A DNA stretch of 59,110 bases. Origin: a virus. Taxonomy: Duplodnaviria > Caudoviricetes. The position numbers were made by a program, and so were the translations under genes. Shown piece after piece: positions 828-53,330 of the stretch (positions are counted from its first letter, which is position 1; each line of letters opens with the position of its first letter). The notes under the pieces were generated by a model that saw only the letters and a program-made list of their open reading frames with translations, searched no databases and was not told where the DNA came from. The stretch spans positions 1 to 59,110 of IMG/VR virus record IMGVR_UViG_3300025626_000029. The stretch is one strand, 5' to 3'.

Positions 828-1283
828 TTAGGCTAACGATCTTTCGCCATTGTCAGCGAAGCTATAATACCCATCTTCACAAACGATAATATGGTCTAAT
901 ACCGATATATCAAAAAGATCTAAGTTCTTTTTAAGTTTCTTAGTTACTCTTTTGTCGTTCTCACTGGGGTTTTTATTCCCGCTTGGGTGGTTATGAGCGA
1001 CAATAACAGAGTGAGACGTGCCCTCAATCGCCCTTCTCGTTATAGCTGGAATATCTACACTACAAGAAGCACCGCATCCTTGCGTAATTGTTTCTAACCA
1101 TAGTACAGAATTCGCCTTATTCATATACATTACAATAAATAGCTCTTGTTCAAATATCTTTTTCCCAATGTGCGCCTTTAATAAATTGTAGGCATCACGT
1201 GAGCTCCTTATTTTCTGTTCTATAGGGTTCTTTTTAGCCTTCCATTTTACCTCAGCTTTCCCAATAAATACTGTTGTTTTCAT
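828..1283 (-). CDS. radC: RadC-like JAB domain protein
   Basis: JAB motif E...AHNHPSGNKNPSEND...LDHII; stand-alone domain without HhH region. Confidence 0.92.
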   Translation of the reverse strand: MKTTVFIGKAEVKWKAKKNPIEQKIRSSRDAYNLLKAHIGKKIFEQELFIVMYMNKANSVLWLETITQGCGASCSVDIPAITRRAIEGTSHSVIVAHNHPSGNKNPSENDKRVTKKLKKNLDLFDISVLDHIIVCEDGYYSFADNGERSLA

Positions 1284-3233: not shown

Positions 3234-3398
3234 ATGACAGGCATTATTATATTACTAAGCATTGTGCTGTTGGTGAGTATGTTACACCGAATAGCAGGTA
3301 TAGATACAACAGCAGAGCACCCTTTCGCTTGTGGTAGTGATGAGGTATGTTACTGTTCTAAATCAGAAAACTGTAAGAAGCGTGAAGAGCAAGTATAA
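3234..3398 (+). CDS. Small membrane protein with Cys-rich tail
   Basis: MTGIIILLSIVLLVSML hydrophobic helix + CGSDEVCYCSKSENC; start moved to the ATG downstream of the promoter. Confidence 0.55.
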   Translation: MTGIIILLSIVLLVSMLHRIAGIDTTAEHPFACGSDEVCYCSKSENCKKREEQV

Positions 3399-3768
3399 GA
3401 AGTACGATAATGGCGGTAAGCCTAAGAAAAAGAAGAGAAGCAAGAAAACAGAGTTTGCCAGACAAATGGAAGAACTTGCTTTAGCGGCTAAGATTATGAT
3501 GCTTGAAGGTATTATGGATCCAGAGGATATGCCAGCAGAGATTACCAGCTATATTGATAGTGGTATGATGGGCGGAGCTATTGACCAAGAGGATTCAGAC
3601 CCTATGTATACTATGCGTCCCTATATGATGGACCCAGAGAACCTAGTTATGGCTAGAAACTCTAGACCAGGCAGAGAAGAATACAGCAAACGTATTCCTA
3701 TGCAAGAGGTTAGAGATGCTAGATTCCCAGAGCTCATGTTACCTAAGAAAAAAATAAGCCTGTTTTAA
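3382..3768 (+). CDS. Hypothetical protein, MKSKY..YxxGG leader family member 1
   Basis: GTG start at 3382 gives MKSKYKKYDNGGKPKKK, matching the starts of the next four genes. Confidence 0.75.
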   Translation: MKSKYKKYDNGGKPKKKKRSKKTEFARQMEELALAAKIMMLEGIMDPEDMPAEITSYIDSGMMGGAIDQEDSDPMYTMRPYMMDPENLVMARNSRPGREEYSKRIPMQEVRDARFPELMLPKKKISLF

Positions 3769-4988
3769 TGAAGAGTAAGTATAAATACGATGAAGGCGGT
3801 AAGCCTGGTAAGCCCGGTAAGAAAGGTCCTAGATTTAGCCGTATGATAGGCGGTCCTGTTCGCTATAAAGGTGGATGGGAAGATAAGCTAGAGGAACTAA
3901 TGCAATCTCAAGCAGATAAGTTAGCTGCACGTTACGGTTGGGCTCCCAACTATAGAGATGCAGAGCTTCCAGAAGATAGAAATAGAGACGATCTACCAGC
4001 ATTCTACGACTTTGTAACAAGAGCAAGAGCAGAAGACCTGTATGATGAGGCGCTACCATTAGATGATTATACTACAACATACAACCTAGGTCCATTATCA
4101 CTACAACGTTGGAAGAATGCAAAGCAATCACCAGATGGCGTAAACTATAGAACACCTTATTGGGCTGCTGAGAAAGTAAAAAAAATAGGAGAAAGCGTAA
4201 CTCTGGGGAAAACACGAGCCAATGCTGGTGTTCACTTAGGGGATGAGCAGAACGATATGCTAGAAGAAGTTAGATTTGGTAACTATAAGTTAGGACACCA
4301 AAAAGAAAAGCTAGATAACACCTTACTAGATAAGTTCAGACAATCTCTTGGTTCTGTGTTCCCACCTGCTAATACTCTTTTAGCTGGAGGTGCATCTACA
4401 GGAGGTAAGAATCTTGACGAAATAGCCCAGCTTGCTTACTCAGCAAAAACTTATAATGATTTATATAAGCAAGAAAAGATTCTGGTTGGAATACAGGATC
4501 AAATACAAGACGCACCCTCTGCCGATCGTCCAGCTCTAGTAGATCAATACAACCAAGCTTCTGAAGGGTACGAAAGAAAAACAGCTGAAGCTACTTGGTT
4601 TGCCCCAACTGCTGGTCTACTTGGTTTAGGTGGTCTTTCTACTACAGATGGATTGGTAATACCAACTGCTGGTCTTATGAGAAACCCACTTCAAAAAGCT
4701 TACAAGCAAGAGAAAAAAGCGTTTAAGAAAACTCTAGAAGACGCAGATGAAAGATACGCTTCTAACAGAGAAGAGTATTTAATGCAAAAGAGTCAACGTG
4801 AGTTAGATAGATACCTAGATGCTTACGAGGAGGAGTATGGTGTAAGACCAGTGTTTAAAGACCCACCAGTAACAAAGACACCTAGAAAAAAAGCTTCGGA
4901 ATATGTTATACCTAACGGCAGAAGAGGTGAAAACAGAAACCCTATATATTTGATGGATGGCGGTAAGGTAAAGCTTAAAAAGAAATGA
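3768..4988 (+). CDS. Hypothetical protein, leader family member 2
   Basis: MKSKYKYDEGGKP...; also C-terminal YLMDGGKVK; TAATG coupling. Confidence 0.8.
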   Translation: MKSKYKYDEGGKPGKPGKKGPRFSRMIGGPVRYKGGWEDKLEELMQSQADKLAARYGWAPNYRDAELPEDRNRDDLPAFYDFVTRARAEDLYDEALPLDDYTTTYNLGPLSLQRWKNAKQSPDGVNYRTPYWAAEKVKKIGESVTLGKTRANAGVHLGDEQNDMLEEVRFGNYKLGHQKEKLDNTLLDKFRQSLGSVFPPANTLLAGGASTGGKNLDEIAQLAYSAKTYNDLYKQEKILVGIQDQIQDAPSADRPALVDQYNQASEGYERKTAEATWFAPTAGLLGLGGLSTTDGLVIPTAGLMRNPLQKAYKQEKKAFKKTLEDADERYASNREEYLMQKSQRELDRYLDAYEEEYGVRPVFKDPPVTKTPRKKASEYVIPNGRRGENRNPIYLMDGGKVKLKKK

Positions 4989-6220
4989 AAAGCAAGTACA
5001 GAAAATATAACGAAGGCGGACCTGTAAAACCTAAGAAGCGTAAATCACCTGTAAGCGAATACTTTGAATCGGCTCCAAAAGGAACAAAAATTGTTGATCT
5101 TAAATACAACGATGATGGAATGGCTATTTTTACATTTAATGATGGTCATGTAGTTTCTCAGAAGCACTCACAGACAATGGGTTATCCATATGACGCAGGT
5201 TATATGGAAAAAGTTTATAACGACAGGTCTCAATACGAAAACGCAGTCAAATCATTTAGGGACAGTTTGTCGTTGGCAAACTTTACAAGTGGTGGTGAAT
5301 TCCCAGAGTATGATTCAGATTGGGACCAGCCCGGAGCAATATCTAAAGAGGGTTCTGAAAAATCTGATTTAGCTAGAAAAATTGTAGAAAGATCAAAAGG
5401 TGATATAAAGGGGTATTACCCCGGAGAACAGCCTGGATACCATCTTTATAGAGAGCCTCCAATACTAAGATGGAGTAACGACCCTAATAAAAAATTAGAC
5501 GGAAACTATAGGGGTAATAATACCGAGTACTATGGATATACTGAATCTCCAGAACCATACAAAAGAACAAACTTTGATTCTGGTCAGACGTTAATGTATA
5601 ACGAAAATACTGGAGACTTCGGAATTCCTATGGATGTATACGAAACAAGAAAAGTCCCTATGGGTCAAGGTAATTTCACAAGTGTCAAATATAAAAACGA
5701 CAGAGGTGATGAGGAAAGTTTCTTAAAAGAAAAGCAAGGTGGCGACTATTTAAGAACTGGTAAAATTATACAAACCGCAGACGAGTCTGGTACTGACTTT
5801 TTAGATACAGGATACCACAGGGCATATTATCCCGATTTTGCTCCACCAAAGGTAAGACCTGTATACAGAGAGCCTGTAAGTAAATTATCTCTAAAACCTA
5901 AGGGATTTAATATAAAGCCAAACATACCCCAATTAAAACCAGTTAATACGCTACCTGACTTTTACTCTAGAAAAATGAATAGGAATGGAGATATTATATA
6001 CGAAACTAGCTTTGGGGAATTTGTCACAACCAAAGATCCTAATCAATTAGGAAGGATAAAAGGAAATAGTAACAGGTATAGAAACAAATTAAATCTACCT
6101 CCGATGCTTGATCAAGATTTTCAAAACATGTTTAGAAATCGTATTGACCAAGGTGTTAGAGACAATCGTGGGCAGTTTAAACAAAACCAAATGAATATAA
6201 AAGCCTCTTACAGAAAATGA
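4985..6220 (+). CDS. Hypothetical protein, leader family member 3 (paralogue of 6889-7956)
   Basis: MKSKYRKYNEGGPVKPKKRK; C-terminal RKMNRNGDIIYETSFG...PMLDQDFQN. Confidence 0.8.
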   Translation: MKSKYRKYNEGGPVKPKKRKSPVSEYFESAPKGTKIVDLKYNDDGMAIFTFNDGHVVSQKHSQTMGYPYDAGYMEKVYNDRSQYENAVKSFRDSLSLANFTSGGEFPEYDSDWDQPGAISKEGSEKSDLARKIVERSKGDIKGYYPGEQPGYHLYREPPILRWSNDPNKKLDGNYRGNNTEYYGYTESPEPYKRTNFDSGQTLMYNENTGDFGIPMDVYETRKVPMGQGNFTSVKYKNDRGDEESFLKEKQGGDYLRTGKIIQTADESGTDFLDTGYHRAYYPDFAPPKVRPVYREPVSKLSLKPKGFNIKPNIPQLKPVNTLPDFYSRKMNRNGDIIYETSFGEFVTTKDPNQLGRIKGNSNRYRNKLNLPPMLDQDFQNMFRNRIDQGVRDNRGQFKQNQMNIKASYRK

Positions 6221-6876
6221 AAGTAAAGTACAACAACGGAGGACCAGTAAAGCCTAGCAAGTACGACAAGTACGGATTTCCGGTATCTGATACTACAGGC
6301 ACAGCTTCTTATGAGAAGATGGCTAAGTATCTTCTTGAGACTAGAGGAGGTAGCAGAGAGCGTATGGAAGACTTAATGTATGACATTGCAGCTGTTGAAT
6401 CGGGTAGAACATTTGACCCAGCTATAAAGCAAATAGGTGGCGGTCCAGGTCGTGGTATATTTCAATACGAGGGACCATTTACAGAAGATAGTAGCAATCG
6501 TGCTAAAGACGCTGTTAGTAGAGCTATGCAATATTACAGCTCTGATAAGACTGGTTCTATGCCAGAATGGCTACAGAATTTTATTGATGAGTCCGGAGGT
6601 TCTTATGACTTCTCTAAACTAACAATACCTCAGCAGAAGTCTCTATTTCTAGCTGACTACAGCCAATCTAAAAGCATACCTTTCAAAGCTTTTATGCAAG
6701 GCGAGGGTACAACAGAAGATATGTGGGCTGACCACCATAAAGTATCTGGTGCAGATAGACCACACTTCAGAGAGCTTGAGGAGTTAGCAGACAAACAAAA
6801 ACAAGCACGCACGCTAACAGACGATCAGATACGTTCAATGATGTTAGGTAGAAGCGTAATTCAAACCCTAAAGTAG
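6217..6876 (+). CDS. Lysozyme/transglycosylase-like protein, leader family member 4
   Basis: MKVKYNNGGPVKP leader; IAAVESG...QIGGGPGRGIFQYE resembles the catalytic Glu and G-x-FQ motif of the lysozyme superfamily. Confidence 0.6.
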   Translation: MKVKYNNGGPVKPSKYDKYGFPVSDTTGTASYEKMAKYLLETRGGSRERMEDLMYDIAAVESGRTFDPAIKQIGGGPGRGIFQYEGPFTEDSSNRAKDAVSRAMQYYSSDKTGSMPEWLQNFIDESGGSYDFSKLTIPQQKSLFLADYSQSKSIPFKAFMQGEGTTEDMWADHHKVSGADRPHFRELEELADKQKQARTLTDDQIRSMMLGRSVIQTLK

Positions 6877-6888
6877 CCCAATGCCACG

Positions 6889-7956
6889 ATGAAAAGCAAG
6901 CACAGAAAATATAATAACGGTGGACCTGTAAAGCCTAAGAAGCGTAAAAAAGAATTTACTGACCGCTCGGAATTTCTGAATCGATTATCCGCTTATAATG
7001 ACAGCTTGTATGCCGCAAACACTTCAGAAGCAGCATTGGCATATTTTGATGAAGTACTTGGAGACTACACAAAATACCAACAAACGCTTAGTGATCTTGA
7101 TTCAAGTGACAGGGTATCATACGCTGATATATTAGATAAAAACTCCAATATAGTAGGAGAACCTTATGATCTAAACGTAACTGCTACAAAAGATAATTTT
7201 GTTGCCCCTAGCGCATTAGATAGACTATTGGGAGATAACGAATTAAAGGTGAGTACTACCAATAGACAGTTAAACTATAAAAACTATCAACTCAAGAACC
7301 CCCAAAAACCTGTAGAACGATACACATACCAACCTCCTTCTGTTATTCTTTCAGATACAAAATACAGCCTTGGCTCTAACGGTGATAAAATAGAGAGGAG
7401 AACTTATAAGGATGGAGACAATAAAGGGGATTATATAAATCCAAAAACAAATCCTTTCTGGAGGTATAATCACCGGTACGAACTAGAGGATAACATATAC
7501 GATTTCAACAGAAATTTTGTTATAGATAAGTTCCAACAGCCAAATGTTGAACCCGTATACACGGGTAAGTCGACAGTAAACCCTATAGCGGGAAACCAGT
7601 TAAAAGCCATCAAGTCTCACAAAAAAAGATTAGTTAATCCGATGCCAAAAATTGCTATGGTAGAGCTACCCCCAAAGCTACCATTTGGTAACATGGAACT
7701 AAATAAAGTTCCTACACTGCGTAACGTACTTCCAGAAATCTATGGTAGAAGAATGAACAGAAAAGGAGATATTATATACAACACAAGTTTTGGAGACTAC
7801 GTAACAACTAAGGATTCAAATAGATTAAACATTCTTAGATCTGGAGCTTTAGGCAGTAGGTATAAAAATAAAGATAACGTTGCTCCAATGCTCGATCAAG
7901 ATTTTCAAAACTTTTTCAGATCACAAATAGAAAATTTACGTAACAACAGAAGATAA
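6889..7956 (+). CDS. Hypothetical protein, leader family member 5 (paralogue of 4985-6220)
   Basis: MKSKHRKYNNGGPVKPKKRK; C-terminal RRMNRKGDIIYNTSFG...PMLDQDFQN. Confidence 0.8.
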   Translation: MKSKHRKYNNGGPVKPKKRKKEFTDRSEFLNRLSAYNDSLYAANTSEAALAYFDEVLGDYTKYQQTLSDLDSSDRVSYADILDKNSNIVGEPYDLNVTATKDNFVAPSALDRLLGDNELKVSTTNRQLNYKNYQLKNPQKPVERYTYQPPSVILSDTKYSLGSNGDKIERRTYKDGDNKGDYINPKTNPFWRYNHRYELEDNIYDFNRNFVIDKFQQPNVEPVYTGKSTVNPIAGNQLKAIKSHKKRLVNPMPKIAMVELPPKLPFGNMELNKVPTLRNVLPEIYGRRMNRKGDIIYNTSFGDYVTTKDSNRLNILRSGALGSRYKNKDNVAPMLDQDFQNFFRSQIENLRNNRR

Positions 7957-7957
7957 C

Positions 7958-8230
7958 ATGGCAAAAGCAAAGAAAATGATCAAGCGTAAAGACGGTAGCT
8001 ACAGCAAACGTGGTTTGTGGGATAACATCCGTGCTAACAAGGGTTCTGGCAAGAAGCCTACAAAAGAGATGCTAGAGCAAGAGCGTAAGATTAAAAAGAA
8101 AGCTAAGAAAAAGAAATACTACGCTGGAGGTAAAGTGAAATACCTAGAAGGTGGTCAAGTAAAGCTTGATAAGAACGGCAACGGTGCTCTAGATGCTAAC
8201 GACTTTAAAATGTTGCGTGGTGAAAGCTAA
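7958..8230 (+). CDS. Small basic protein with YxxGG repeats and an EF-hand-like loop
   Basis: Lys-rich; YYAGGKVKYLEGGQVK; DKNGNGALDAND. Confidence 0.75.
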   Translation: MAKAKKMIKRKDGSYSKRGLWDNIRANKGSGKKPTKEMLEQERKIKKKAKKKKYYAGGKVKYLEGGQVKLDKNGNGALDANDFKMLRGES

Positions 8231-8384
8231 AAAGAAAACAGAAAAAGTAATGGTTGACGCACCCTCTGGCTATCACTGGATGGACAAAGGAGGGCGCTAC
8301 TACCTTATGGAGCATAAAGGTAAGTTTGTACCACATAAAGGAGCGTCACTAAAGAAGCCTTTTAAAACTATTGCTTCACACTAA
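8220..8384 (+). CDS. Small basic hypothetical protein
   Basis: GTG start at 8220 gives MKAKKKTEKVMVDAPSGYHWM... Confidence 0.6.
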   Translation: MKAKKKTEKVMVDAPSGYHWMDKGGRYYLMEHKGKFVPHKGASLKKPFKTIASH

Positions 8385-8814
8385 TAGGTTCTTCACCAGC
8401 CATCTTGCGGTAGAATTTAGATACAACCAGTCTACCGTTTTGGCTGAGTGCATACCTTACACGGTAATTATATTTATTCTCTTCTCTAAACAAATGATCT
8501 TCTCTAACAGTAGACGGAGTAAGCTTATCAAAATGCTTATAGATATACCCCTTTTTAAGAAGCGGGTATACAAGCCTACGTCCTATGTTTCGTTTCTCAT
8601 ACTTGTACTCTCCGGCAATCCAGTCCATCGTAAAGAATTCCAAGTCGTAGACGAAGAGCATGAACCGCATCTCTTTATCTGATAGATCATATCTAGAAAG
8701 CATGTCGCTCATAACAATGCTCCAGTTTTTTAGGTAGTTGTCTTTCATCCATTTTTCCTTGAGATAGGAGAAATCTCTGAACATCTTTGTCTTTGCTACT
8801 CTTCCCTTTGGCAT
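8368..8814 (-). CDS. Putative winged-helix DNA-binding protein
   Basis: LSDKEMRFMLFVY...LVYPLLKKGYI...YALSQNG pattern resembles MarR-type wHTH; the only counter-oriented gene in the late module. Confidence 0.55.
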   Translation of the reverse strand: MPKGRVAKTKMFRDFSYLKEKWMKDNYLKNWSIVMSDMLSRYDLSDKEMRFMLFVYDLEFFTMDWIAGEYKYEKRNIGRRLVYPLLKKGYIYKHFDKLTPSTVREDHLFREENKYNYRVRYALSQNGRLVVSKFYRKMAGEEPISVKQ

Positions 8815-9471: not shown

Positions 9472-10059
9472 ATGAGATCATTGTACGATTTCTTCGTTAG
9501 AATGCCTAAAGCTTTTAACGATGAACTAAAGGTTGGCGATAAGTCAATATACCTAGATCCAAAATGGAATGAGTTTGAAAACAGAAAGATGTCTGCTGAG
9601 GTCTATGCAGTCCCAGAGAAATATGACACTGGAGTCAAACCTGGAGACACACTCTACTTCCACCACCATGTCGTTATATCAAATGAAGGTAAAGGTCAGC
9701 TCTTAGAGGATGATATATACTTCGTCAGATTTGATCCCTATAATAGCGGAAACACCCAGGCTTATGCCTACAAGTGTCAAGATACGGGAGAAATACATCT
9801 GTTGTCTGAATGGATCTTCTTAATACCCGAAGAACAGGAGGATGAAGAAGTTACTGAAAGCGGCATTATTACCGAACTCAAAAAGCCAGAATACAACATG
9901 TTTGGTTATGTTCTTTACGATTCGCCAGCTGTACAAGAGCTCGGACTTAAAAAGGGCGACAAAGTAATGATTATGAAGAACGCTGACTATCGCATGGAGA
10001 TAGATGGTGAAGAGGTCTACCGTACACACATAACACATATTTACGCAACTGGATTCTAA
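9472..10059 (+). CDS. Tandem two-domain GroES-like co-chaperonin
   Basis: C-half EEVTESGII...LKKGDKV...MEIDGEEVY; N-half AEVYAVP...VKPGDTLYF; promoter TAAGTTTG at 9429-9436. Confidence 0.7.
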   Translation: MRSLYDFFVRMPKAFNDELKVGDKSIYLDPKWNEFENRKMSAEVYAVPEKYDTGVKPGDTLYFHHHVVISNEGKGQLLEDDIYFVRFDPYNSGNTQAYAYKCQDTGEIHLLSEWIFLIPEEQEDEEVTESGIITELKKPEYNMFGYVLYDSPAVQELGLKKGDKVMIMKNADYRMEIDGEEVYRTHITHIYATGF

Positions 10060-10355: not shown

Positions 10356-12476
10356 ATGGCTGGGTTAGTAAACATAGAAGGTGTTGATGAACCTGTAGTA
10401 AACATATGCCCACAGGGTACTGGTGGTGAGGTGATTAACATATCTGATGTTTACCTGCAACTACCAGCTGTTCCTAAAAAGAAAGACATATTATTTAGCG
10501 ACCTAAAAAAAGAAGAGCAATACTGGCGTAGGATAGACCCCCCGTCAGATTTGATGAAGATTAGGTCCATGGATGATTGGACAGATATGCCTAAGCCTTT
10601 TAAGGAAAGGTATACAGAGTTTATACGTAAGGAATTTGATAGACGTAGAAACGGTGTGTGGTTTATGAATAACGGTGAGCCCACCTATATTACCGGTCAC
10701 CACTACATGTTCCTGCAATGGTCCAAGATTGATATTGGATACCCTAGTTACTTAGAGTTTCAAAATAGACTTTCCCGACATTTCGTTGCTTGCGAACACG
10801 ACCCAAGATCTATGGGGCAGGTCTATGTAAAGTGTAGACGTTCGGGTTATACCCAGATGTGTTCTGGTAACTTGTCTGATGAAGGCACTCAGGTTAAAGA
10901 CAAACTGCTTGGTATCGTGTCTAAGACGGGTAAAGATGCACAAGAGAATGTGTTTATGAAGAAGATAATGCCAATATACCGGAACTATCCATTCTTCTTT
11001 AAACCTATTCAAGACGGTACAACTAACCCTCGTCAAGAGCTTGCATTCCGAGAACCATCAAAACGTATTACTAAAAACAATAAAACAGCAAACAAAGGTG
11101 AGGCTTTAGACACGATAATCAACTGGAAGAACACTACTTCCAATGCTTATGATGGTGAGAAGCTACATTACCTTTTTCTTGATGAGGCTGGTAAAATAGA
11201 AAAGCCAGAAGATATAACTGAGATATGGCGTGTACATAGAACCTGTTTACTTGTAGGTCGTAAGATTATAGGCAAGGCAATGGTAGGTTCTACTGTAAAC
11301 CCTTTGGATAAAGGTGGTAGAAATTTTAAGAAGTTAGTATACAACTCAGACCCTACAGAACGCAATGCCAACGGTAGAACAAAAACAGGTCTGTATAAAA
11401 TATTTATACCATCCTACGAAGCGCTAGAAGGTTTTTTTGACCGTTATGGTAATCCTGTTATAGATGACCCGGAAGAACCTGTTCTTGGCGTAGAGAACGA
11501 GATGATAGAGATAGGCGCTAAAACGTTTTTAAAGAATGAGCGTAAAGCATTATCAAACGACAGTTATGATTTAAACGAGGTTATACGACAGTTTCCATTT
11601 ACCATGGATGAGGCGTTTCGTGACTCTACTAAAGCATCTACTTTTAACATTGCTAAGATATATGAGCAGCTGGAAAACAATATGGAGCTCTATCCTAACC
11701 CCGTTGTTCGTGGTAACTTTGTATGGGACAATGGTGTTCAAGATACAAATGTTGTATTTAGACCAGACCCTAACGGTAGATTTAGAATAGCCTGGATGCC
11801 GCCAGACGAAATACGTAATAAAGTTGTAACAGAAAGAGGTAAAAAAACTCCTGGTAATGCATGGTTAGGTGTAGGAGGTGTGGATAGCTATGACCTTGAT
11901 ACAACTGTAGATGGCAGAGGATCTAAGGGTGCACTGCATCTGTATAACAAAATAAATATGGAGCACCCCTCAAATATGTTTGTATTAGAGTACGCTTCAC
12001 GTCCACCACTGGCTAGAATATTTTACGAGGATGTTCTTATGGCTGCTGTTTTTTATGGGTATATGATACTAATAGAAAATAACAAATACGGTATTGCTAG
12101 GTATTTTGAGAACAGAGGATACGATGGTTACCTCATGGATAGACCGGTACACTTGGGTGGTGGGTCACGTAGTGCTACAAAAACAAAAGGTATACCATCC
12201 AACTCTCAAGATATTATACAAGCTCACGCCCAGTCTATTGAAGCGTATATACATGAGCATGTTGGGTTAAACGAAGAGGGTCATTATGGTAAAATGTTTT
12301 TTGACAACACACTAGAAGACTGGATTAACTTTAAAATAGACGACCGTACCAAGTTTGACCTTAGTATTAGTTCTGGTCTTGCGCTTATGGCTGCTCAAAA
12401 GTCAATTAAAAAACAAGAGAAGAAAGATAACAGCAATAAGAAATTCTTCCGTAAAGTCAAGGTAATTCAGCGTTAA
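10356..12476 (+). CDS. terL: Terminase large subunit
   Basis: KCRRSGYT Walker-A-like motif, YLFLDEAGK Walker B, C-terminal GVDSYD nuclease motif; precedes portal. Confidence 0.9.
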   Translation: MAGLVNIEGVDEPVVNICPQGTGGEVINISDVYLQLPAVPKKKDILFSDLKKEEQYWRRIDPPSDLMKIRSMDDWTDMPKPFKERYTEFIRKEFDRRRNGVWFMNNGEPTYITGHHYMFLQWSKIDIGYPSYLEFQNRLSRHFVACEHDPRSMGQVYVKCRRSGYTQMCSGNLSDEGTQVKDKLLGIVSKTGKDAQENVFMKKIMPIYRNYPFFFKPIQDGTTNPRQELAFREPSKRITKNNKTANKGEALDTIINWKNTTSNAYDGEKLHYLFLDEAGKIEKPEDITEIWRVHRTCLLVGRKIIGKAMVGSTVNPLDKGGRNFKKLVYNSDPTERNANGRTKTGLYKIFIPSYEALEGFFDRYGNPVIDDPEEPVLGVENEMIEIGAKTFLKNERKALSNDSYDLNEVIRQFPFTMDEAFRDSTKASTFNIAKIYEQLENNMELYPNPVVRGNFVWDNGVQDTNVVFRPDPNGRFRIAWMPPDEIRNKVVTERGKKTPGNAWLGVGGVDSYDLDTTVDGRGSKGALHLYNKINMEHPSNMFVLEYASRPPLARIFYEDVLMAAVFYGYMILIENNKYGIARYFENRGYDGYLMDRPVHLGGGSRSATKTKGIPSNSQDIIQAHAQSIEAYIHEHVGLNEEGHYGKMFFDNTLEDWINFKIDDRTKFDLSISSGLALMAAQKSIKKQEKKDNSNKKFFRKVKVIQR

Positions 12477-12518: not shown

Positions 12519-14945
12519 ATGAATGTAACAAAGAAAGGAAGCTTCCCAAACCCTCTAGCAAAGCACGCTGAAAAAAGCCAGAAAGAATATGGCTTAGAGT
12601 ATGCTAAGGCGATGATGAATCAATGGGGAGGGTTAGACACAGAGGGAAGTTTGTATCAAAAGCGGTACAAAGAGTTTGAGCAGTCACGCATGTACGCTAA
12701 CGGTACACAGGACACTCGTATATATAAACAAATACTTAACAGTTTAGATCCAGGTAATGACGATGGTTCTTTGCTGTCTATTGATTGGACTCCAGTTCCT
12801 ATCGTTCCTAAGTTTGTTAAGATTGTAGCAAACAAAATCATATCATCATATCGTTATCCTCAGATTGAAGCTGTCGATCCACTTTCTCAAAGCGAGAAGG
12901 ATGTAAAGAAAAAAATGATTGCTTTACAGATTGAAAAGAAGGAGATGATTGCGGAAGCTAAAGCTTCTGGTCTGCAAACACAGGTAGATCCAGATGCCCT
13001 TCCAGATACTCCTGAAGAAGCTGAAATATTTTTAGAAACAAATGTAAAAACAGATGCTGAGGTTGCTGGTCAACTTGCAACGCAGCTTACACTACAGTGG
13101 AATGACTTTGACGAGCGCATCTACCGCAGGTGTGTTGAAGATATTATTAGCTGTGGTATGGCTGTTGCTAAACGCAGCAATGACCCTAACTATGGTATTA
13201 CTGAGGAGTATGTAGACCCATCAATGTTTATACATAACTATACTGATGACCCTACGTTTTCTGACTTAGTCTATGCTGGACATATTAAGCGTATGAGTAT
13301 TATGGAGCTCAAGCGTTTAGCCGGTGATCAGTTTACTGAAAAGGAATATACCGAAATGGCTGAGAGTGTAATGAACAAACACTCTAATAGCGCAGAGCGT
13401 TTTACAGAAAAGTATTACGACAAACAGCTTAATAAATACAAGTACGGTTACGATGAGTACACTGTTGAGATATTAGACTTTGAGTTCTTATCTGTAGATT
13501 CTATGATCTACGAAAACAAGATGTCTCGTCATGGAAACATGGGATTCTATTACAAAGGAGAAGAATATGAAGCTCCTAAGAATTCCGTTTACGATCGTGA
13601 GCCAGTGTACATGCAAAACTCTACAGTTTATGGAGGTATGTACATTATTGGCACGGACCATTTATTTAACTACGAGAAGCAACATAATATTCCTAAGAAT
13701 ATCCACGATATTTCTAAGGCTCGTTTATCTTATTCTGTAACTTCTGTAAACATGCGTAACATGATACCTAAATCTTTGGTATCTGGTGTTGTTGGGTTTG
13801 CAGATCAACTACAGTTAACGCACTTGAAACTACAGCAAGCAATTGCGAAGAGTAAGCCAGATGGTATCATGGTTGATATTGAAGGTTTGGAGAATGTTGA
13901 CCTAGGTCGTGGTGGTGATTTACAGCCTTTAGATATTCAAGACATCTACGAACAAACAGGTGTCTTTTACTACCGTAGTAAGAATCCAGAAGGCGGTTTT
14001 CAGAATCCTCCTATTCGTGAGATTGGAAATACAATCCGTAATATCAACGAGCTTATTGCATTATACAATCACTACCTACGTATGATTCGTGATGCTACAG
14101 GTATCAATGAGGTAATGGACGGTACAACTCCAAAAGGAGAAGCGTTAGTAGGTGTAAACCAGATGGCTGTAAATGCCGGTAACAACGCTATCTATGATAT
14201 TACGAATGCTAGTATGATTCTTTATAGAAGAGTCTGTGAAGACATCTTAAAATGCGTTCAGATACTTCCTGTAGAATCAGTTATATTCAAGGTATATGAA
14301 AAAGCTATTGGCAAGACTAATATGTCTGTCTTATCAAGCTTTAGAGATCTTCCAATGTACAACTTTGGTGTCCGGGTTCTCAGTGATCTTAACGATATGG
14401 ACCGTCAGTACCTTGAGCAAAATATACAAATTGCTCTAGCTCAAAAAGAAATAGACCTTGAAGACGCTATTGCTATTCGTCAGTTAAAAGACGTTGACCA
14501 GGCAGAGCGTTTACTCATTATACGTAGAAAGAAACGTATAGCTCAACAACAGGCTATAGCACAACAAAATGTACAGGCGCAATCACAAGCTCAAGCTATG
14601 CAGCAACAATCAGCTGTTGAAGTTGATTTACAGAAGCAGCAAGTTCTTGCACAGTTGGATATGCAGAAAAAACAATTTGAGTATCAGCTAAAAATGCAGT
14701 ACGCTCAAATGGAACACCAAATGAAGATCCAGCTTGAGCAAATGAAAGGTGAGTATGGTCTTGCGGAACAGCAAATTGAAAGTGGAGCTGAAGCTAGAGA
14801 TGAAGCAATGAAAGAAGATCGTAAAGACGAGCGTGTTAAAAAACAAGCTGTAGAGCAATCTAAGTTATTGTCTCAACGTCAGGGTAAACGAGATGAGTTG
14901 CAAGATAGCTCAGACGCTTTAAGTCAACTTCTTGGTAACCAGTAA
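12519..14945 (+). CDS. Portal protein
   Basis: 808 aa after TerL; Gln-rich C-terminal coiled coil typical of podovirus portal barrels. Confidence 0.85.
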   Translation: MNVTKKGSFPNPLAKHAEKSQKEYGLEYAKAMMNQWGGLDTEGSLYQKRYKEFEQSRMYANGTQDTRIYKQILNSLDPGNDDGSLLSIDWTPVPIVPKFVKIVANKIISSYRYPQIEAVDPLSQSEKDVKKKMIALQIEKKEMIAEAKASGLQTQVDPDALPDTPEEAEIFLETNVKTDAEVAGQLATQLTLQWNDFDERIYRRCVEDIISCGMAVAKRSNDPNYGITEEYVDPSMFIHNYTDDPTFSDLVYAGHIKRMSIMELKRLAGDQFTEKEYTEMAESVMNKHSNSAERFTEKYYDKQLNKYKYGYDEYTVEILDFEFLSVDSMIYENKMSRHGNMGFYYKGEEYEAPKNSVYDREPVYMQNSTVYGGMYIIGTDHLFNYEKQHNIPKNIHDISKARLSYSVTSVNMRNMIPKSLVSGVVGFADQLQLTHLKLQQAIAKSKPDGIMVDIEGLENVDLGRGGDLQPLDIQDIYEQTGVFYYRSKNPEGGFQNPPIREIGNTIRNINELIALYNHYLRMIRDATGINEVMDGTTPKGEALVGVNQMAVNAGNNAIYDITNASMILYRRVCEDILKCVQILPVESVIFKVYEKAIGKTNMSVLSSFRDLPMYNFGVRVLSDLNDMDRQYLEQNIQIALAQKEIDLEDAIAIRQLKDVDQAERLLIIRRKKRIAQQQAIAQQNVQAQSQAQAMQQQSAVEVDLQKQQVLAQLDMQKKQFEYQLKMQYAQMEHQMKIQLEQMKGEYGLAEQQIESGAEARDEAMKEDRKDERVKKQAVEQSKLLSQRQGKRDELQDSSDALSQLLGNQ

Positions 14946-29267: not shown

Positions 29268-29561
29268 ATGAAAGCGAAGAAGAAAGACTCACGTTTGAAA
29301 AGTGCAGGGGTATCTGGTTACAATAAGCCTAAGCGTACACCTAGCCACCCTAAAAAGTCACACGTTGTAGTGGCTAAAGTCGGAGATAAGGTTAAGACTA
29401 TACGTTTTGGAGAGCAAGGCGCAAGCACTGCTGGTAAGCCTAAGTCTGGTGAGTCAGATCGTATGAAGAAGAAACGTGCATCATTTAAAGCACGTCATCG
29501 CAAGAATATAGCTAAAGGTAAAATGTCCGCAGCATACTGGGCTAATAAGGTTAAATGGTAA
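29268..29561 (+). CDS. Small basic phage protein
   Basis: KSHVVVAK...IRFGEQG...RASFKARH...SAAYWANKVKW. Confidence 0.75.
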   Translation: MKAKKKDSRLKSAGVSGYNKPKRTPSHPKKSHVVVAKVGDKVKTIRFGEQGASTAGKPKSGESDRMKKKRASFKARHRKNIAKGKMSAAYWANKVKW

Positions 29562-29719: not shown

Positions 29720-29907
29720 TACACAAATGGACTTCAGTTAGAGCAGTATACTTATTAATGTCTGCTGTTTTGTTTTTAGGATTAACCCTTCAGTCTTGGT
29801 GGGTTGTTGTCTTTGTAATCGCTATGCTTAACGTAGGGGTGTGGACTAAGTTTTGTCCAAGCAAATGGTTCTTTGAAAAAATAGGATTCCGCAACACAGA
29901 ATTGTAA
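29716..29907 (+). CDS. DUF2892/YgaP-like two-TM membrane protein
   Basis: ATG at 29716; two hydrophobic helices then GVWTKFCP..WFFEKIG. Confidence 0.65.
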   Translation: MIHKWTSVRAVYLLMSAVLFLGLTLQSWWVVVFVIAMLNVGVWTKFCPSKWFFEKIGFRNTEL

Positions 29908-30806
29908 TGAATGCTCTTGACGGCATCTCAAAAAGGTCAATTGTATGCTTGATTTGCTCCATACTAATTATGCTAACCTTTTTTGTATTTAAGACTCTCG
30001 TAGTATTTAAATACATACATCACTCCACATTTACACATTACTTTGAATGGCTATCTGTAATAGCCTTTATGCCACCTTTCTTTATGGTGGTACAAGAGTT
30101 CTTGCAAAACAAGGCTAAAATTAAAGACGACCTAAGTAAAAAAAATATCTACTTAGAACACGCTGCTAAAATTATACGTCACGATATGCATAGCGGTATC
30201 AATACCTACTTACCAAGAGGTATCAAATCACTGAACCGTAGGCTTACAGATAAGAACATTAAAGACTTGCGTATTAGCGCACCTTTAAAACTTATTAAAG
30301 ACGGCTTACACCACGCTCAGAAGGTGTATGCTGGCGTGTATGAGTTTACCAACTTAGTAAAAGAGAATGCACAGCTAAACAAATCTCCGCACAACATAAT
30401 AGAAATACTAACAGACTACTTAAAGCTCACTGCTTACAAAAATCAAGTAGTATTATCAGATAACTTACCAGACGTATTAGATGTTAATGAGGCATTGTTT
30501 TGTACTGCGTTAGATAACTTTATTAGGAATGGATTAAAATACAACGACAGTGGAACTAAGTGGGTAAAAATATACCACGAAGGCAGTTACCATACAGGTT
30601 CTTATCTTGTTGTAGAAGACAACGGCAGAGGCTTAACAGCTGAAGAGTTTATAATCCTATCGAAGCCTTACACCAGAAAAGAAAACCAGAAAGAAGCTGG
30701 GACTGGACTTGGTTTAAACATTTCTATAGAGATTCTAAAAGAACACGGATACAGCGTGTCTGCTAAAAAAACAGGTAACGGTACAAAAATATATATAAAG
30801 TTATGA
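29907..30806 (+). CDS. Sensor histidine kinase (2 TM + HisKA + HATPase_c)
   Basis: H-box IIRHDMHSGI, N-box LDNFIRNGLKYN, G1 VEDNGRG, G2 GTGLGL. Confidence 0.92.
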   Translation: MNALDGISKRSIVCLICSILIMLTFFVFKTLVVFKYIHHSTFTHYFEWLSVIAFMPPFFMVVQEFLQNKAKIKDDLSKKNIYLEHAAKIIRHDMHSGINTYLPRGIKSLNRRLTDKNIKDLRISAPLKLIKDGLHHAQKVYAGVYEFTNLVKENAQLNKSPHNIIEILTDYLKLTAYKNQVVLSDNLPDVLDVNEALFCTALDNFIRNGLKYNDSGTKWVKIYHEGSYHTGSYLVVEDNGRGLTAEEFIILSKPYTRKENQKEAGTGLGLNISIEILKEHGYSVSAKKTGNGTKIYIKL

Positions 30807-31240
30807 TTGACACATTAATGCTCATAGACGATGAAAACCTCTTCCACCTTGTGTTTGAAGATGCTTGTTCTATGTTGGACATTGCTCTATCTATAGAGTC
30901 ATTAGACAGCTCTGATGAGGCTGACAGAAAATTTAAAGCTTGGTTTCCAGACGACCCAGACCACGAGCGTCCACAATGTGTATTCGTAGACTTAAACATC
31001 ATTGGCTCTTCTTTTGATGGTATCGAGATGATACGAAAGATAAATACAGAATACGGAAACGGATGTGTTATAGGAATTATATCGAGTAGCTCCGACCAAG
31101 AAGAGATTGATAAAGCTAAAGCTGTAGGCGCTCAGTTCTGGATTATTAAGTCTGATGACATAGAACCACGACTTGAGGAATTCCACAAAGACTACGAAGG
31201 TTACGTAAGTAAAACAAATCCGTTTAAGGTTTATAGATGA
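30803..31240 (+). CDS. Single-domain (CheY-like) response regulator receiver
   Basis: LMLIDDE, VFVDLN (phospho-acceptor Asp), IISSS, FWIIK; no output domain. Confidence 0.92.
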   Translation: MIDTLMLIDDENLFHLVFEDACSMLDIALSIESLDSSDEADRKFKAWFPDDPDHERPQCVFVDLNIIGSSFDGIEMIRKINTEYGNGCVIGIISSSSDQEEIDKAKAVGAQFWIIKSDDIEPRLEEFHKDYEGYVSKTNPFKVYR

Positions 31241-31828: not shown

Positions 31829-32983
31829 ATGAACATGGAAAATAAACAAGAAGCTGAAATTGAAAATCAACTTGGCGATGCCGGGTTTAGCTTTTCTGAT
31901 ACAATGCCAGAAGGAACAGAGTCTGCTCCTCCACCAGTGCCAGATAGCTTTGATATAGATTTAAGTAGTGCCCCAGCAGCTGAGGAACAGCAAGTAGAAC
32001 AGGAGCCTGTTCAACAATCTGAGCCAGTTGCAGAGGAGCAAGCTACTGAGCCGGTAGTAGAGCCTACTGGCGAAAGTTCTTTAAATACAGAAACACCCGT
32101 TGCAGAAGAGCCATCTCTTGATGAGTCTGCTGTATCTCGTTACGTCAGCGAAAAGCTTGGCTTAGAGATAGAGAGTCTTGATCAATTGTCAGCTTTTCTA
32201 CAACAAACACAACAGCAACAAGAATCTACAATTGACGAGCGAGTTAAGGTTATCGCAGACTTTGTAGAGCAGACAGGTCGCAACCCAGAAGATTGGTTTA
32301 GATACCAGGCTTTAAATCCGTCCGAAATGGATGATATGACAGCCATTCGTGTATCTATGTCAAACGAATATCCAAACCTTAGTGGTGAGGAGATTGATAT
32401 GCTTGTAGGCTCAAAGTATAAACTTGACGAAGATTATCACTCAGAAGATGAGGTTAAACTTAGCAAGCTACAATTGAAGATTGATGCTGATAAAGCTAGA
32501 ACAGGAATTGATCAGATTCGTTCTCAATTTACTGCTCCAGCAAAACAAAAAGATGAAGCTGTTCAGTCACCTATTGACGACCGTTGGATTCAGAATATGC
32601 AAGAACAAACCAACAACCTAGATGCTGTTACTTTTGAGTTAGCAGATGGTAAGGAGTTTGAGTTCGGTATTAATGATTCTTACAGAAATCAATTGATTGA
32701 CAAGAACCGCAACATTGAATCGTTCTTTGACCAGTACATTAGCCAAGAAGGACAATGGGACTACGATAAGTTCAACATTCATCAAACGCTGATTGATAAC
32801 ATTGATGCGATAGCAAAATCATTGTATCAGCAAGGTATGAGTGACGGACAGCGTAGAGTCGTTAACGAGGCGGCAAATGTTAAGTCAGAAGCACCGGCAG
32901 TAGGTACGGCACAACCTACAGACAATGTCTCACAGCAACTCTTAGATGCGTTGGGTGTAGATAAAACTTTGAAATTTTTCTAA
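31829..32983 (+). CDS. Putative capsid scaffolding protein
   Basis: Acidic disordered N-terminus, helical C-terminus, immediately upstream of MCP; promoter TAATTTTG at 31804-31811. Confidence 0.65.
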   Translation: MNMENKQEAEIENQLGDAGFSFSDTMPEGTESAPPPVPDSFDIDLSSAPAAEEQQVEQEPVQQSEPVAEEQATEPVVEPTGESSLNTETPVAEEPSLDESAVSRYVSEKLGLEIESLDQLSAFLQQTQQQQESTIDERVKVIADFVEQTGRNPEDWFRYQALNPSEMDDMTAIRVSMSNEYPNLSGEEIDMLVGSKYKLDEDYHSEDEVKLSKLQLKIDADKARTGIDQIRSQFTAPAKQKDEAVQSPIDDRWIQNMQEQTNNLDAVTFELADGKEFEFGINDSYRNQLIDKNRNIESFFDQYISQEGQWDYDKFNIHQTLIDNIDAIAKSLYQQGMSDGQRRVVNEAANVKSEAPAVGTAQPTDNVSQQLLDALGVDKTLKFF

Positions 32984-33002: not shown

Positions 33003-34361
33003 ATGAGTTTAAAAGCAAGTCAGCCATCCGTTAGTGGTGGCGTACAAAGCGCATTTAAGCGCTTAGACCCAGCAAAGTACACTTCTTTAGGTGACTTTAT
33101 TGATGAAGTAAACCGCCCCGATATTCGTGAGGCGTTAGCAAAAACTTACGGTGATCAAGGTATCACAGGTTTCTTGCAAATGACAGGAGCAGTTAAATCT
33201 GCTGGAACAGCTGACAAAGTTCAGTGGTGGGAAGAAGCTCGTCTTCACGCACGTCAAACTGGTGACTGGATCGCTGGTGGTAAAATTGCAGTTACTGTAG
33301 CTGATGAGAAAATCTTTACTCGTGTAAACGATGTATTATTAGTTGGAACTGATCGTTACTTGGTAACAGCTATTGCTGATGTAGGTAGCCCAGTTACTTC
33401 TCGCAACTTGACTGTAGTCAATATGGGAAGCACTGCTTCTAACCCAACTTCTGGTGCTGTTGATGCAGCTATCATTGGTAACTTGTACGGACAAGGTTCA
33501 AGCCAACCAACAGAATACTTGGAAAGCAACGTTGTATTACGTGAGAATCCATACAGCATCTTGAAAGAAACATTCAAGGTAACTGGTTCTCAAGCTACGA
33601 ACATTGGCTACATCAACCTTGGTAACGGTGACTACCGTTGGTACATCAAAGGTGAGATGGATACTCGTCAGCGTTTCTTAGACAAGCGTGAGATGATGAT
33701 GTTGTTAGGTCAGAAAAAAGCTACTGATGTAACCATCGGAGATTACTCTGTAAACGGTTCTGAAGGATACTTCGCTGCAATTGAAGATCGTGGTATTGTT
33801 GAAACTGGTGGTGTGGTTAACACATTAACTGAGCTTGATGCAATCGTTACTGAATTAGATAAGCAAGGAGCTGCTCCAGAATACGCTATCTACGGTAACA
33901 CTGCTCAGATGTTGGCAATTGATGACATGGTAGCTTCATTGAATGGTGCTTCTGGATTTGCTTCTGGTGGTCCAACTACTGGTTCTGCTGCATTTGGCGC
34001 ATTTTCTAATGCTGACCAAGCTGTACGACTTGGATTCAAGTCATTCGGACGTGGTGGTTACACATTCCACAATAAGTCTTGGAAGTTGCTTAACGACCCA
34101 ACATTGTTAGGTGGTTCTGACTTCAAGGGTGTAATGATTCCTTTGACTTCTGTAATTGATCCTAAAAGCGGTTCTCGTGCAGCAGCTCTAGAGATGAACT
34201 ACAAAGCAGTTGATGGTTACTCTCGTGAAATGGAGCACTGGATGACAGGTTCTATCCTTGGTGTTACTAACACTAATGACGATAGCTTGCAATTCAACTA
34301 CCGTTCAGAATGTAACTTGGTTACTCGTGCAGCTAACCAGCATGTTTTGATCCGCTCATAA
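33003..34361 (+). CDS. Major capsid protein
   Basis: 452 aa between scaffold and a strong terminator; visibly biased codon usage; position in the head module. Confidence 0.8.
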   Translation: MSLKASQPSVSGGVQSAFKRLDPAKYTSLGDFIDEVNRPDIREALAKTYGDQGITGFLQMTGAVKSAGTADKVQWWEEARLHARQTGDWIAGGKIAVTVADEKIFTRVNDVLLVGTDRYLVTAIADVGSPVTSRNLTVVNMGSTASNPTSGAVDAAIIGNLYGQGSSQPTEYLESNVVLRENPYSILKETFKVTGSQATNIGYINLGNGDYRWYIKGEMDTRQRFLDKREMMMLLGQKKATDVTIGDYSVNGSEGYFAAIEDRGIVETGGVVNTLTELDAIVTELDKQGAAPEYAIYGNTAQMLAIDDMVASLNGASGFASGGPTTGSAAFGAFSNADQAVRLGFKSFGRGGYTFHNKSWKLLNDPTLLGGSDFKGVMIPLTSVIDPKSGSRAAALEMNYKAVDGYSREMEHWMTGSILGVTNTNDDSLQFNYRSECNLVTRAANQHVLIRS

Positions 34362-52210: not shown

Positions 52211-52435
52211 ATGAAAAAGTTCGTAGAGATTTTTAATAATGACAACAGCTACAATGAGAAGACGGTAATAGGTTTTTTATCGTTTGCTGTTATGGTATTG
52301 GTAATGCTTGCCGATGTAATCACTGGAGCGTTTGGAGCACACCTACCTATCAATGAGTTTACTTATAACAGTTTTGTTATTGTTACTTTAGGTAGCTTTG
52401 GTATCGCAGGACTAGAGAAGTTTGCTAAAAAATGA
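52211..52435 (+). CDS. Holin-like two-TM protein
   Basis: Two hydrophobic helices, basic C-terminus, directly upstream of endolysin. Confidence 0.65.
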   Translation: MKKFVEIFNNDNSYNEKTVIGFLSFAVMVLVMLADVITGAFGAHLPINEFTYNSFVIVTLGSFGIAGLEKFAKK

Positions 52436-52917
52436 TAAGAGCTATGGAGTTAGAGGTACTACGATTCAGCAGCCAAGATGATTCAACAAATGGAATATTA
52501 TTTGATGTTACAGGAGGACAAAGAAAGTTCTTGTGCTATACCCTTGAAGACGAATATCGTGAAGATAAAGTCATGGGTGAAACTAGAATTCCCGCAGGCA
52601 CATATAGAATAACACTTAGAACTGTTGGTGGATTCCACGGCAGATACAAAAAAAAGTATGGCGAGATGCACAAAGGAGCGTTATGGGTACGTGACGTTCC
52701 TAACTTTGAGTATATCCTTATTCATACTGGTAATACTGACGAACATACTGCTGGGTGTCTTCTTTTGGGTGATTCTCAACAAGCGAACTTTGGCTCTAGT
52801 AATGGTATGGTGGGGTCAAGTGTTAATGCGTATAAAAGAGTCTATCCTCCGATTGCTAAGGCACTTGAAGAAGGGGAATCGGTAAGTATTACTTATGTAG
52901 ATTTTGACACTGTATGA
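52432..52917 (+). CDS. DUF5675-family putative endolysin
   Basis: CYTLED...RIPAGTY...ILIHTGNT...TAGCLLLG. Confidence 0.75.
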   Translation: MIRAMELEVLRFSSQDDSTNGILFDVTGGQRKFLCYTLEDEYREDKVMGETRIPAGTYRITLRTVGGFHGRYKKKYGEMHKGALWVRDVPNFEYILIHTGNTDEHTAGCLLLGDSQQANFGSSNGMVGSSVNAYKRVYPPIAKALEEGESVSITYVDFDTV

Positions 52918-53330
52918 AATGGCTGGTAAAATTAACTCTATTGCTGTTATTAACGAGTTGCAGCGCTCAATGGCACTTAAAGAAAGCGGTGCAGAAGGAT
53001 CCAGCAATTCTGGAAAAAGACACGCTGGTTGTAACGACCACGGTTGTCAGCCCACCTGTGGCTATCACGGATACTGTGACTTTGAAGCAACACGATACTA
53101 TTACAATAGTGAAGGATCGTCTGAAAGTACAGCTAATAAAGGTGAACGACACGATTACTATAAACGCAGAATGCGCCTCGGATACGATAGTTCAGACTAT
53201 TAATGTTCCTTACGATAGGGTAGTATATATAGAAAAAGAATCTATATGGGACAAGATAAAGAACCTAGCTATCTATATGGGGCTGGCGTTCTTATTGTTT
53301 AAGTTAATAATGAAACAATTTGACAAGTAA
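52914..53330 (+). CDS. Unimolecular spanin-like lipoprotein
   Basis: Lipobox LLLTSC, beta-rich middle, C-terminal TM LAIYMGLAFLLFKLIM; follows endolysin. Confidence 0.65.
   Translation: MKWLVKLTLLLLLTSCSAQWHLKKAVQKDPAILEKDTLVVTTTVVSPPVAITDTVTLKQHDTITIVKDRLKVQLIKVNDTITINAECASDTIVQTINVPYDRVVYIEKESIWDKIKNLAIYMGLAFLLFKLIMKQFDK

Follow-up and report, generated by a model that had tools for sequence, protein, structure and literature searches.

The internal proteins of bacteriophage T4 are packed in the phage head and injected, and the short N-terminal peptide that targets them, the capsid targeting sequence (CTS), is cut by the prohead protease and is portable in principle. Encapsulins offer a second case: a short terminal cargo-loading peptide loads diverse cargo into their HK97-fold shell. 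How podophages choose the proteins that they pack and inject is largely unknown. For the crass-like phage crAss001, passages of the structure report describe large cargo zones, one cargo protein (C1) seen bound to the portal and the presence of gp45 in virions; those passages give no loading rule and mention no shared terminal motif (PMC10172136). We examined the IMG/VR record IMGVR_UViG_3300025626_000029 over its full 59,110 nucleotides (the window), a single contig that represents a complete crass-related podophage with a muzzle protein (positions 1-59,110). At 3382-8230 it carries a cassette of six genes, m1-m6. The first five, in tandem, begin with a basic leader of the form M-K-x-K-(x)-K-Y-x-x-G-G, and the sixth carries the motif internally. 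This tag is real, conserved as a peptide, modular and exchangeable; it is enriched in muzzle-bearing phages and occurs on genes in the C1 position and on other post-muzzle genes. Judging from sequence comparisons, we favor, tentatively, the reading that it is a portable address for virion cargo in crass-like phages.

The original prediction, made from the letters of the window, quoted five shared starts (at 3382, 3768, 4985, 6217 and 6889), and these read exactly as quoted. The copies that it noted at the end of m2 (LMDGGKVK) and twice in the protein encoded from 7958 (YYAGGKVK and YLEGGQVK) were recovered by regular expression. A further putative copy, FKYGG in the protein encoded from 41073, was withdrawn from the set, as its register differs (Y-GG) and the basic context is absent. 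Over the full 59,110 bases translated in six frames, the pattern [YFWLM]..GG.VK has six matches, all within 4950-8164, and Y..GG[KPQ] has seven, all within 3403-8141. A looser leader-like start opens five of the 87 mechanically called open reading frames (ORFs) of at least 70 aa, and these are exactly m1-m5. Across 26 aligned leader starts, the invariant positions are M1, K, Y, G and G, and nothing else. The DNA beneath the leaders varies synonymously (the glycine pair is written GGC GGT, GGA GGA or GGT GGA), and selection is therefore on the peptide, not on the DNA. These synonymous changes, together with the confinement of the motif to 3403-8164, led us to reject an origin in a DNA repeat or in translation-start signals. 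Tagged ends are predicted to be disordered in the AlphaFold2 (AF2) models of m4 (residues 1-10) and m2 (both ends). In a literature search whose coverage left out most subscription journals, we found no paper on this motif, nor a matching Crassvirales cargo or packaging signal or capsid-targeting peptide.

All members of the cassette lie on the plus strand. The first, m1 (3382-3768, 128 aa), starts with a GTG codon at 3382, where relatives with m1 homologues (in loci L014 and L020) have ATG; its leader, MKSKYKKYDNGG (3382-3417), runs into a series of lysines and then an acidic body of no known family. In m2 (3768-4988, 406 aa), the leader MKSKYKYDEGG (3768-3800) is accompanied by a second copy, RMIGGPV, and by a C-terminal copy, YLMDGGKVKLKKK (from 4950), that the family retains as NPI[FY]L.DGGKV. 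Its AF2 model is poor (predicted local distance difference test, pLDDT, 58.4), with values below 50 at residues 1-35 and 375-406, and a weak match to Tox-REase-2 falls under the Pfam cut-off. The products of m3 (4985-6220, 411 aa; leader MKSKYRKYNEGG, 4985-5020) and m5 (6889-7956, 355 aa; leader MKSKHRKYNNGG, 6889-6924) are paralogues at their C-termini, having a common stretch of 84 residues (55% identity, E 1e-24); m3 has only 13 relatives among 1.84 billion representatives. Between them, m4 (6217-6876, 219 aa) joins the leader MKVKYNNGG (6217-6243) to a lysozyme-like body, akin to lytic transglycosylases and GH19 enzymes. Finally, m6 (7958-8230, 90 aa, pI 10.2) has two internal motif copies, at 8117-8140 and 8141-8164, and after them a loop, DKNGNGALDANDF, that resembles an EF-hand. 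In the loci of relatives m6 is the commonest cassette member, and an Atlas search with it returned viral hypothetical clusters only. A 63-aa plus-strand ORF at 8193-8384, which contains APSGYHWMDKGGRYYLMEH, has no leader in this phage, and members of its family bear an MK.KKY..GG leader in other viral contigs (L131, L150 and L179). Pfam and PHROG scans assigned no family to m1, m3, m5 or m6, and tblastn searches of GenBank phages with m3, m6 and a common 60-aa tagged protein found nothing. All-against-all blastp places m1, m2 and m3/m5 in separate families, and two m4 homologues form a fourth; apart from the C-terminal relationship of m3 and m5, the early description of the bodies as mostly unrelated is thus borne out. 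As a side observation, small tagged proteins (m6 and those of L136, L165, L167 and L174) often have an EF-hand/dockerin-like calcium loop, D-x-N-x-D-G-x-I-x-x-x-D, directly after a motif copy; the Pfam matches to this loop, including the EF-hand matches of m6, are all under the cut-off.

All named relatives of this phage are distant. The closest is the uncultured podovirus MW202828 (50% terminase identity), followed by the Flavobacterium elemo phages (41%), Maribacter phage Panino, Cellulophaga phages phi18:3 and phi38:1, and then the gut crassviruses; the phage is a small crass-related podophage, presumably of an aquatic member of Bacteroidota. For nearer relatives, we fetched 80 IMG/VR loci around terminases of 66-98% identity. 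The motif occurs upstream of the terminase in about 25 of the 80, many of the others holding little upstream DNA. Clustering of the bodies from these relatives and from contigs G001-G005 (the m4 of this phage was missed by the charge filter) reduced 67 tagged ORFs to 45 distinct proteins in 15 clusters; two of these clusters are false positives, which leaves at least 13 unrelated families.

The content of the cassette varies between phages whose terminases are 87-98% identical. Where this phage has m1-m2-m3-m4-m5-m6, locus L020 has m1, m2, one m3/5-type gene and m6; L014 has a new 197-aa body, m1, m4, an m3/5-type gene and m6; and L023 has one m3/5-type gene and m6. Further, the upstream stretch MRYVTVLNQKTVRSV that precedes m1 here precedes an m4 homologue (P0001), an m2 homologue (P0143) and an m3/5-type protein (P0169). 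Different bodies behind one upstream stretch are what one would expect to arise by recombination or deletion between leaders in tandem. Two database proteins, P0005 and P0006, are in-frame fusions of m1-type and m4-type sequences that keep the motif at the junction. Leaderless relatives also exist for m4 (P0010, P0013-15), m2 (P0144, P0149-154) and m3/5 (P0166, P0167).

The strict pattern MK.[KR]KY..GG, back-translated, matches at least 121 stretches in IMG/VR, versus 41 for the reversed control pattern. In the 80 loci with fetched DNA for this pattern, 81 of 86 matches open ORFs of at least 40 aa, and 51 of these 81 have no more than ten in-frame codons upstream. The 81 ORFs have 71 distinct N-terminal 40-mers, and 46 bear further copies of the motif; their medians are 105 aa in length, 22% K+R and 12% G. 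The residue after GG is K in 26, P in 10 and M in 10, followed by 12 others. Among the longer contigs that carry the pattern, 8 of 19 encode crAss_MUZ. In Pfam and PHROG scans, sets of 50, 38 and 15 IMG/VR proteins with the tag yielded almost no named family; the exceptions are phrog_24249, DUF6321, DUF5824 and sub-threshold dockerin/EF-hand loops. The original prediction envisaged a modular loading or cleavage signal with interchangeable cargo. The discrete, portable leader on exchangeable bodies has held good, the link to virion cargo is one of association, and a proposed link to a JAB isopeptidase, discussed below, has fallen away.

These features invite comparison with the two loading systems mentioned at the outset. 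The T4 CTS (of IPI-III and Alt) was put forward as an analogue, and the likeness in principle stands, as a short N-terminal peptide is common to unrelated proteins in both cases (five genes here, at least 13 families in relatives). No sequence relation was seen, however, and Pfam and PHROG scans of this phage's proteins found no prohead protease family. The present motif, unlike the T4 peptide, is also C-terminal, internal and tandem. The encapsulin cargo-loading peptide is again a short terminal peptide on diverse proteins, but its sequence and terminus differ from those of this tag, for which loading is our proposal.

The link to virion cargo comes from the genes that follow the muzzle. In this phage the muzzle protein (36828-41054, plus strand, 1408 aa; crAss_MUZ E 2e-19 and crAss_MUZ_C E 3e-7 in Pfam), on account of which we assign the phage to the crass-like group, is followed in order by proteins of 310, 457 and 2930 aa. 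The first of these, P0017 (41073-42005, plus strand), lies directly after the muzzle, the position of the C1 cargo protein, and has no leader. Its homologues in the same position in three uncultured relatives (G002, G003 and G004; blastp E 3e-41 to 2e-45) all start with the leader, which directly precedes the hydrophobic glycine-rich segment that opens P0017. By hhalign (93.7%, E 2e-7), the P0017 family matches gp099 of phi38:1, whose annotation is that of a structural protein of the virion. In a fourth lineage, G009, the gene abutting the muzzle starts MKKKKYDNGG and matches phrog_24249 (E 5e-25). So does g070 of phage phi14:2 (E 7e-287), a protein annotated as structural/virion from tandem mass spectrometry (MS/MS) that matches crAss_CARG1 above the Pfam cut-off (E 3e-10). 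This protein has FNEGGK at the start of its crAss_CARG1 domain, and GGMVDPPTK and GGPVDPPSKK before its two HExxH modules, one before each; the leader of one m4 homologue reads, comparably, GGPVDPPKK. Another m4-body homologue, P0010, continues into a fused C1-like domain, which matches crAss_CARG1 at E 3.5e-5, short of the cut-off, and g070 by tblastn at E 1e-5. In crAss001 itself, the C1 protein gp45 is basic at both termini: the N-terminal one contains F-D-T-G-G, and the C-terminal one is rich in GG and resembles the end of m2. Aromatic-GG motifs open its portal-bound domain, residues 425-552.

Large tagged proteins occur after the muzzle in contig G018 (104 kb), where four of six post-muzzle genes start with the motif, including those for proteins of 1537 and 631 aa. 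The 1537-aa protein carries more copies internally, at intervals of roughly 400-600 aa, and near its end. We found no blastp, Pfam or PHROG link between the post-muzzle proteins of G018 and the cargo proteins of crAss001, and the label "cargo block" is thus given to them by gene order alone. We also note that this contig (also L230) and three other crass-like contigs (G008, G010 and G019; 28-111 kb) have two to four in-frame TGA codons inside the muzzle match; the frames are open under translation table 4, as with the muzzle match of G018, which suggests a recoded stop.

Taken as an address, M-K-x-(K/R)-K-Y-x-x-G-G would be a portable short linear tag, placed in disordered basic chain ends and linkers, that marks cargo or ejection proteins, which travel inside the virion and are then delivered into the host. 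As the head assembles, the tag may bind a conserved virion component and would in this way direct the attached body to the particle. The portal region provides a precedent for such binding, since it is the site to which the C1 cargo domain attaches in crAss001. The cassette at hand would then be an accessory set of five tagged proteins, one of them a cell-wall hydrolase, and a small multi-copy motif protein, with a content that probably turns over by recombination between tandem leaders. A bolder proposal is that a universal, transplantable tag of ten residues (a basic run and Y-x-x-G-G) loads arbitrary proteins, from small polycations to enzymes of 1500 residues, and that tandem cassettes such as 3382-8230 form a fast-evolving payload bay reshuffled by recombination at the tags; we regard this as possible but rather doubtful. 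Such a universal tag would be the first cargo-loading signal defined for crass-like phages and a handle for placing chosen proteins in crass-like particles. If the tag is indeed a cargo address, its presence on C1-position, large post-muzzle and accessory proteins would supply a testable rule for the choice of proteins. It would make cargo predictable from sequence in thousands of uncultured crass-like genomes, and it would explain the quick turnover of injected payloads.

Several observations weigh against a cargo address. The core cargo genes of this phage (at 41073, at 42005 and that of the 2930-aa protein) are untagged, and of the 120 homologues nearest to P0017 none has the tag. A distance of 30 kb separates these core genes from the tagged ones, which stand at the head of the rightward arm beside a divergent intergenic region and could therefore be early genes. 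Although the C1 proteins belong to the same phage lineage and C1-position proteins are tagged in four uncultured lineages, m1-m6 do not directly follow the muzzle, whereas the tagged orthologues in G002-G004 and G009 do. Nor is a crAss_CARG1 domain detectable: at E values up to 10, Pfam gives none in m1-m6 or in the protein encoded from 41073, whereas the controls gp45 (E 2e-66) and g070 (E 3e-10) match. An assignment of the P0017 C-terminus to this domain found no support, blastp to gp45 giving E 0.12-0.44 and hhalign a probability of 0.3%. Among crAss001 gp44-gp50, only gp45 (one of six proteins) has even a loose version of the motif. For five named relatives (elemo, MW202828, phi18:3, phi38:1 and Panino), 26-42 kb of each genome was read and showed no basic N-terminal copy; three regular-expression matches in this DNA are internal and non-basic. 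The tag is therefore dispensable for cargo loading in general. Lastly, many of the tagged proteins elsewhere are tiny, basic, glycine-rich and multi-copy, which also fits nucleic-acid binding. When the portal (808 aa; 16-row alignment) and the aligned 40-residue leader were co-folded, two uncontrolled runs scored 0.00, and we count this result neither way. As a separate candidate role, anchoring in the manner of head fibres was considered and rejected: the N-termini through which crAss001 gp21 and gp29 attach to hexon pockets do not have the motif.

Another possibility is that the motif is a site of proteolytic maturation, at which some phage or host protease would cut after GG, removing propeptides or tails and splitting fused modules. 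Such cutting could coexist with a targeting role, as it does in T4, and adenovirus core proteins are cut at (M/L/I)-x-G-G. The pattern of conservation is of the expected kind, since it lies upstream of and includes GG and leaves the following residue free. The motif also stands at module junctions in P0005 and P0006, before the HExxH modules of g070 and at intervals in the 1537-aa protein of G018, and the homologous region of the C1 family begins right after GG. However, we found no co-occurring protease family: Pfam and PHROG scans of this phage's proteins gave RadC-type JABs only, and these were not found in three of the five tagged relatives. Moreover, m6 and many small proteins have closely spaced tandem copies, with a few residues between them, which would make poor cleavage sites. 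We consider this explanation unlikely, if worth keeping in view.

The two RadC-type JABs merit separate mention, as a JAB isopeptidase acting at the GG had been offered as a speculative link. One is a stand-alone protein (828-1283, minus strand, 151 aa), and the other is a domain (48470-48811, plus strand) within the giant 2930-aa protein (43403-52195); both have an HNHPSG metal site. The JAB family, PF04002, is present in two of five complete tagged relatives and was not found in the other three. In the giant protein the JAB is a variable insert: the orthologues (L232, L233 and L234) have a SAM-lyase/DUF3293-like or methyltransferase-like insert in G002 and G004, both sub-threshold, and none in G003. 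JAMM substrates have a beta-grasp fold that ends in GG; the present motif lies in N-terminal segments predicted to be disordered, and no beta-grasp family was matched. A passage of Iyer et al. argues that RadC-type JABs are without the ubiquitin-tail groove (PMC5512222). We therefore judge neither JAB to be linked to the GG. With these inserts, the giant protein resembles a polyvalent protein of the virion whose modules can be exchanged; scans recognized no RNA polymerase family in it.

An N-terminal leader ending in GG also recalls the double-glycine leaders of bacteriocins. Those leaders have a hydrophobic/acidic pattern, whereas lysines and a tyrosine characterize the present motif, which is also found at C-termini. 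Profile scans of the whole 59-kb genome found no C39 peptidase or ABC exporter.

Alternatively, the tag could be a generic polyanion-binding arm, whose lysines, stacking tyrosine and flexible GG would contact DNA or an acidic scaffold, such that basic proteins co-condense with the genome in the absence of a specific partner. The abundance elsewhere of tiny, basic tagged proteins speaks for this, as do the net charge of the first 25 residues (+3 to +10 in m1-m6) and the putative scaffold at 31829-32983, whose N-terminal region is very acidic, like that of crAss001 gp31. Plain electrostatics, however, would not conserve Y-x-x-G-G, and here Y and GG never change, whereas the charge around them does. 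Several leaders run into acidic stretches (GGKMDEDG and GGEMESG, for example), and the bodies of m1 and m4 are acidic. This alternative strikes us as improbable.

The tag might also act in the host cell and not in assembly, by docking on a host factor or membrane, for instance as the basic stretch beside a membrane-inserting segment or through binding to a chaperonin or the envelope. It does directly precede a hydrophobic glycine-rich segment in the C1-position proteins, the tagged genes of this phage adjoin a likely early control region, and these phages have a GroES-like gene; the mobile loop of GroES has a K-x-x-GG core, which the tag may resemble. On the other hand, m1-m5 have no hydrophobic segment behind the tag, the enrichment is in muzzle-bearing phages and post-muzzle blocks and not in early regions, and relatives that do not carry the tag have the GroES-like gene as well. 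We rate action in the host as quite improbable. That the shared start has no function, being either left over from tandem duplication or a side effect of the A-rich start regions favored for translation in Bacteroidota, would agree with the m3/m5 paralogy and the A-rich MK.K codons, but this idea is largely refuted and hardly credible given the otherwise unrelated bodies, the synonymous changes inside the conserved peptide, the GGN GGN codons that are not A-rich, the same motif at C-terminal and internal sites, and its spread over many unrelated families and contigs (71 distinct 40-mers among 81 ORFs).

The description of m4 as lysozyme-like was upheld by the AF2 fold (pLDDT 78.7, falling below 50 at residues 1-10). 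In a fold search against all representative chains, the best 46 of 50 listed matches are, by title, mostly chitinases, lytic transglycosylases, muramidases and endolysins (Z 6.6-3.3), and they include GH19 chitinases, MltE, Slt70, phi29 gp13 and a cyanophage pre-ejectosome chain; Foldseek with the same model gave no match at E <= 0.001. Glu61 is invariant in 13 aligned sequences and is followed by an invariant GGPGRG..Q.E block. The lysis cassette of this phage is found at 52211-53330 and encodes three proteins: a holin, which is a membrane protein of 74 aa; a DUF5675 enzyme that has a homologue in crAss001 gp30 (E 2e-17); and a spanin-like lipoprotein of 138 aa whose C-terminus bears a membrane anchor. 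Since m4 stands apart from this cassette, it is, as judged from its modeled fold, a second wall hydrolase, and this counts in favor of the cargo reading. Phages T7 and phi29 have virion-borne wall hydrolases, and m4 resembles the T7 gp16 N-domain and phi29 gp13 in its lysozyme-like fold, its invariant Glu and its separation from the lysis genes; the Z scores are moderate, however, and m4 is a putative virion protein.

The remainder of the genome has genes for the terminase (10356-12476), the portal (12519-14945), a major capsid protein homologue (33003-34361), tail fibers and two ring-type proteins. On the minus strand is a small replication arm with a primase-helicase and the stand-alone RadC-type JAB. 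The tagged genes are preceded by a 1.7-kb, ORF-poor divergent region containing three copies of a composite repeat, about 300 bases apart (1640-2300), each with TTCCCATTTTAATAGGTTTAA, AGTTAACAGATAACCA and the GC-rich hairpin GAGCGCC-CACT-GGCGCTC. These repeats may be promoters, terminators or an origin; scans for Bacteroidota-type promoters, sigma-70 promoters and terminators gave matches at chance level. A 148-aa gene on the minus strand (8368-8814) stands alone between the tagged cassette and the packaging genes. In MW202828, an opposite-strand gene annotated as a repressor adjoins GroEL/GroES about 9 kb upstream of the terminase, which is not the position of the 8368-8814 gene. Immediately upstream of the terminase of this phage is the gene for a 195-aa GroES-like protein (9472-10059), which has the same place in elemo, MW202828, phi18:3, phi38:1 and Panino; some of these have GroEL too, but this phage does not. 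A very basic 97-aa protein (29268-29561; phrog_7595, E 2e-42) is kept upstream of the fiber genes in MW202828 and elemo. Finally, a HATPase_c protein (a histidine-kinase-type ATPase, E 3e-14) and then a response-regulator receiver protein (E 3e-7) are encoded at 29907-31240, in the middle of the structural arm; this pair is unusual for a phage.

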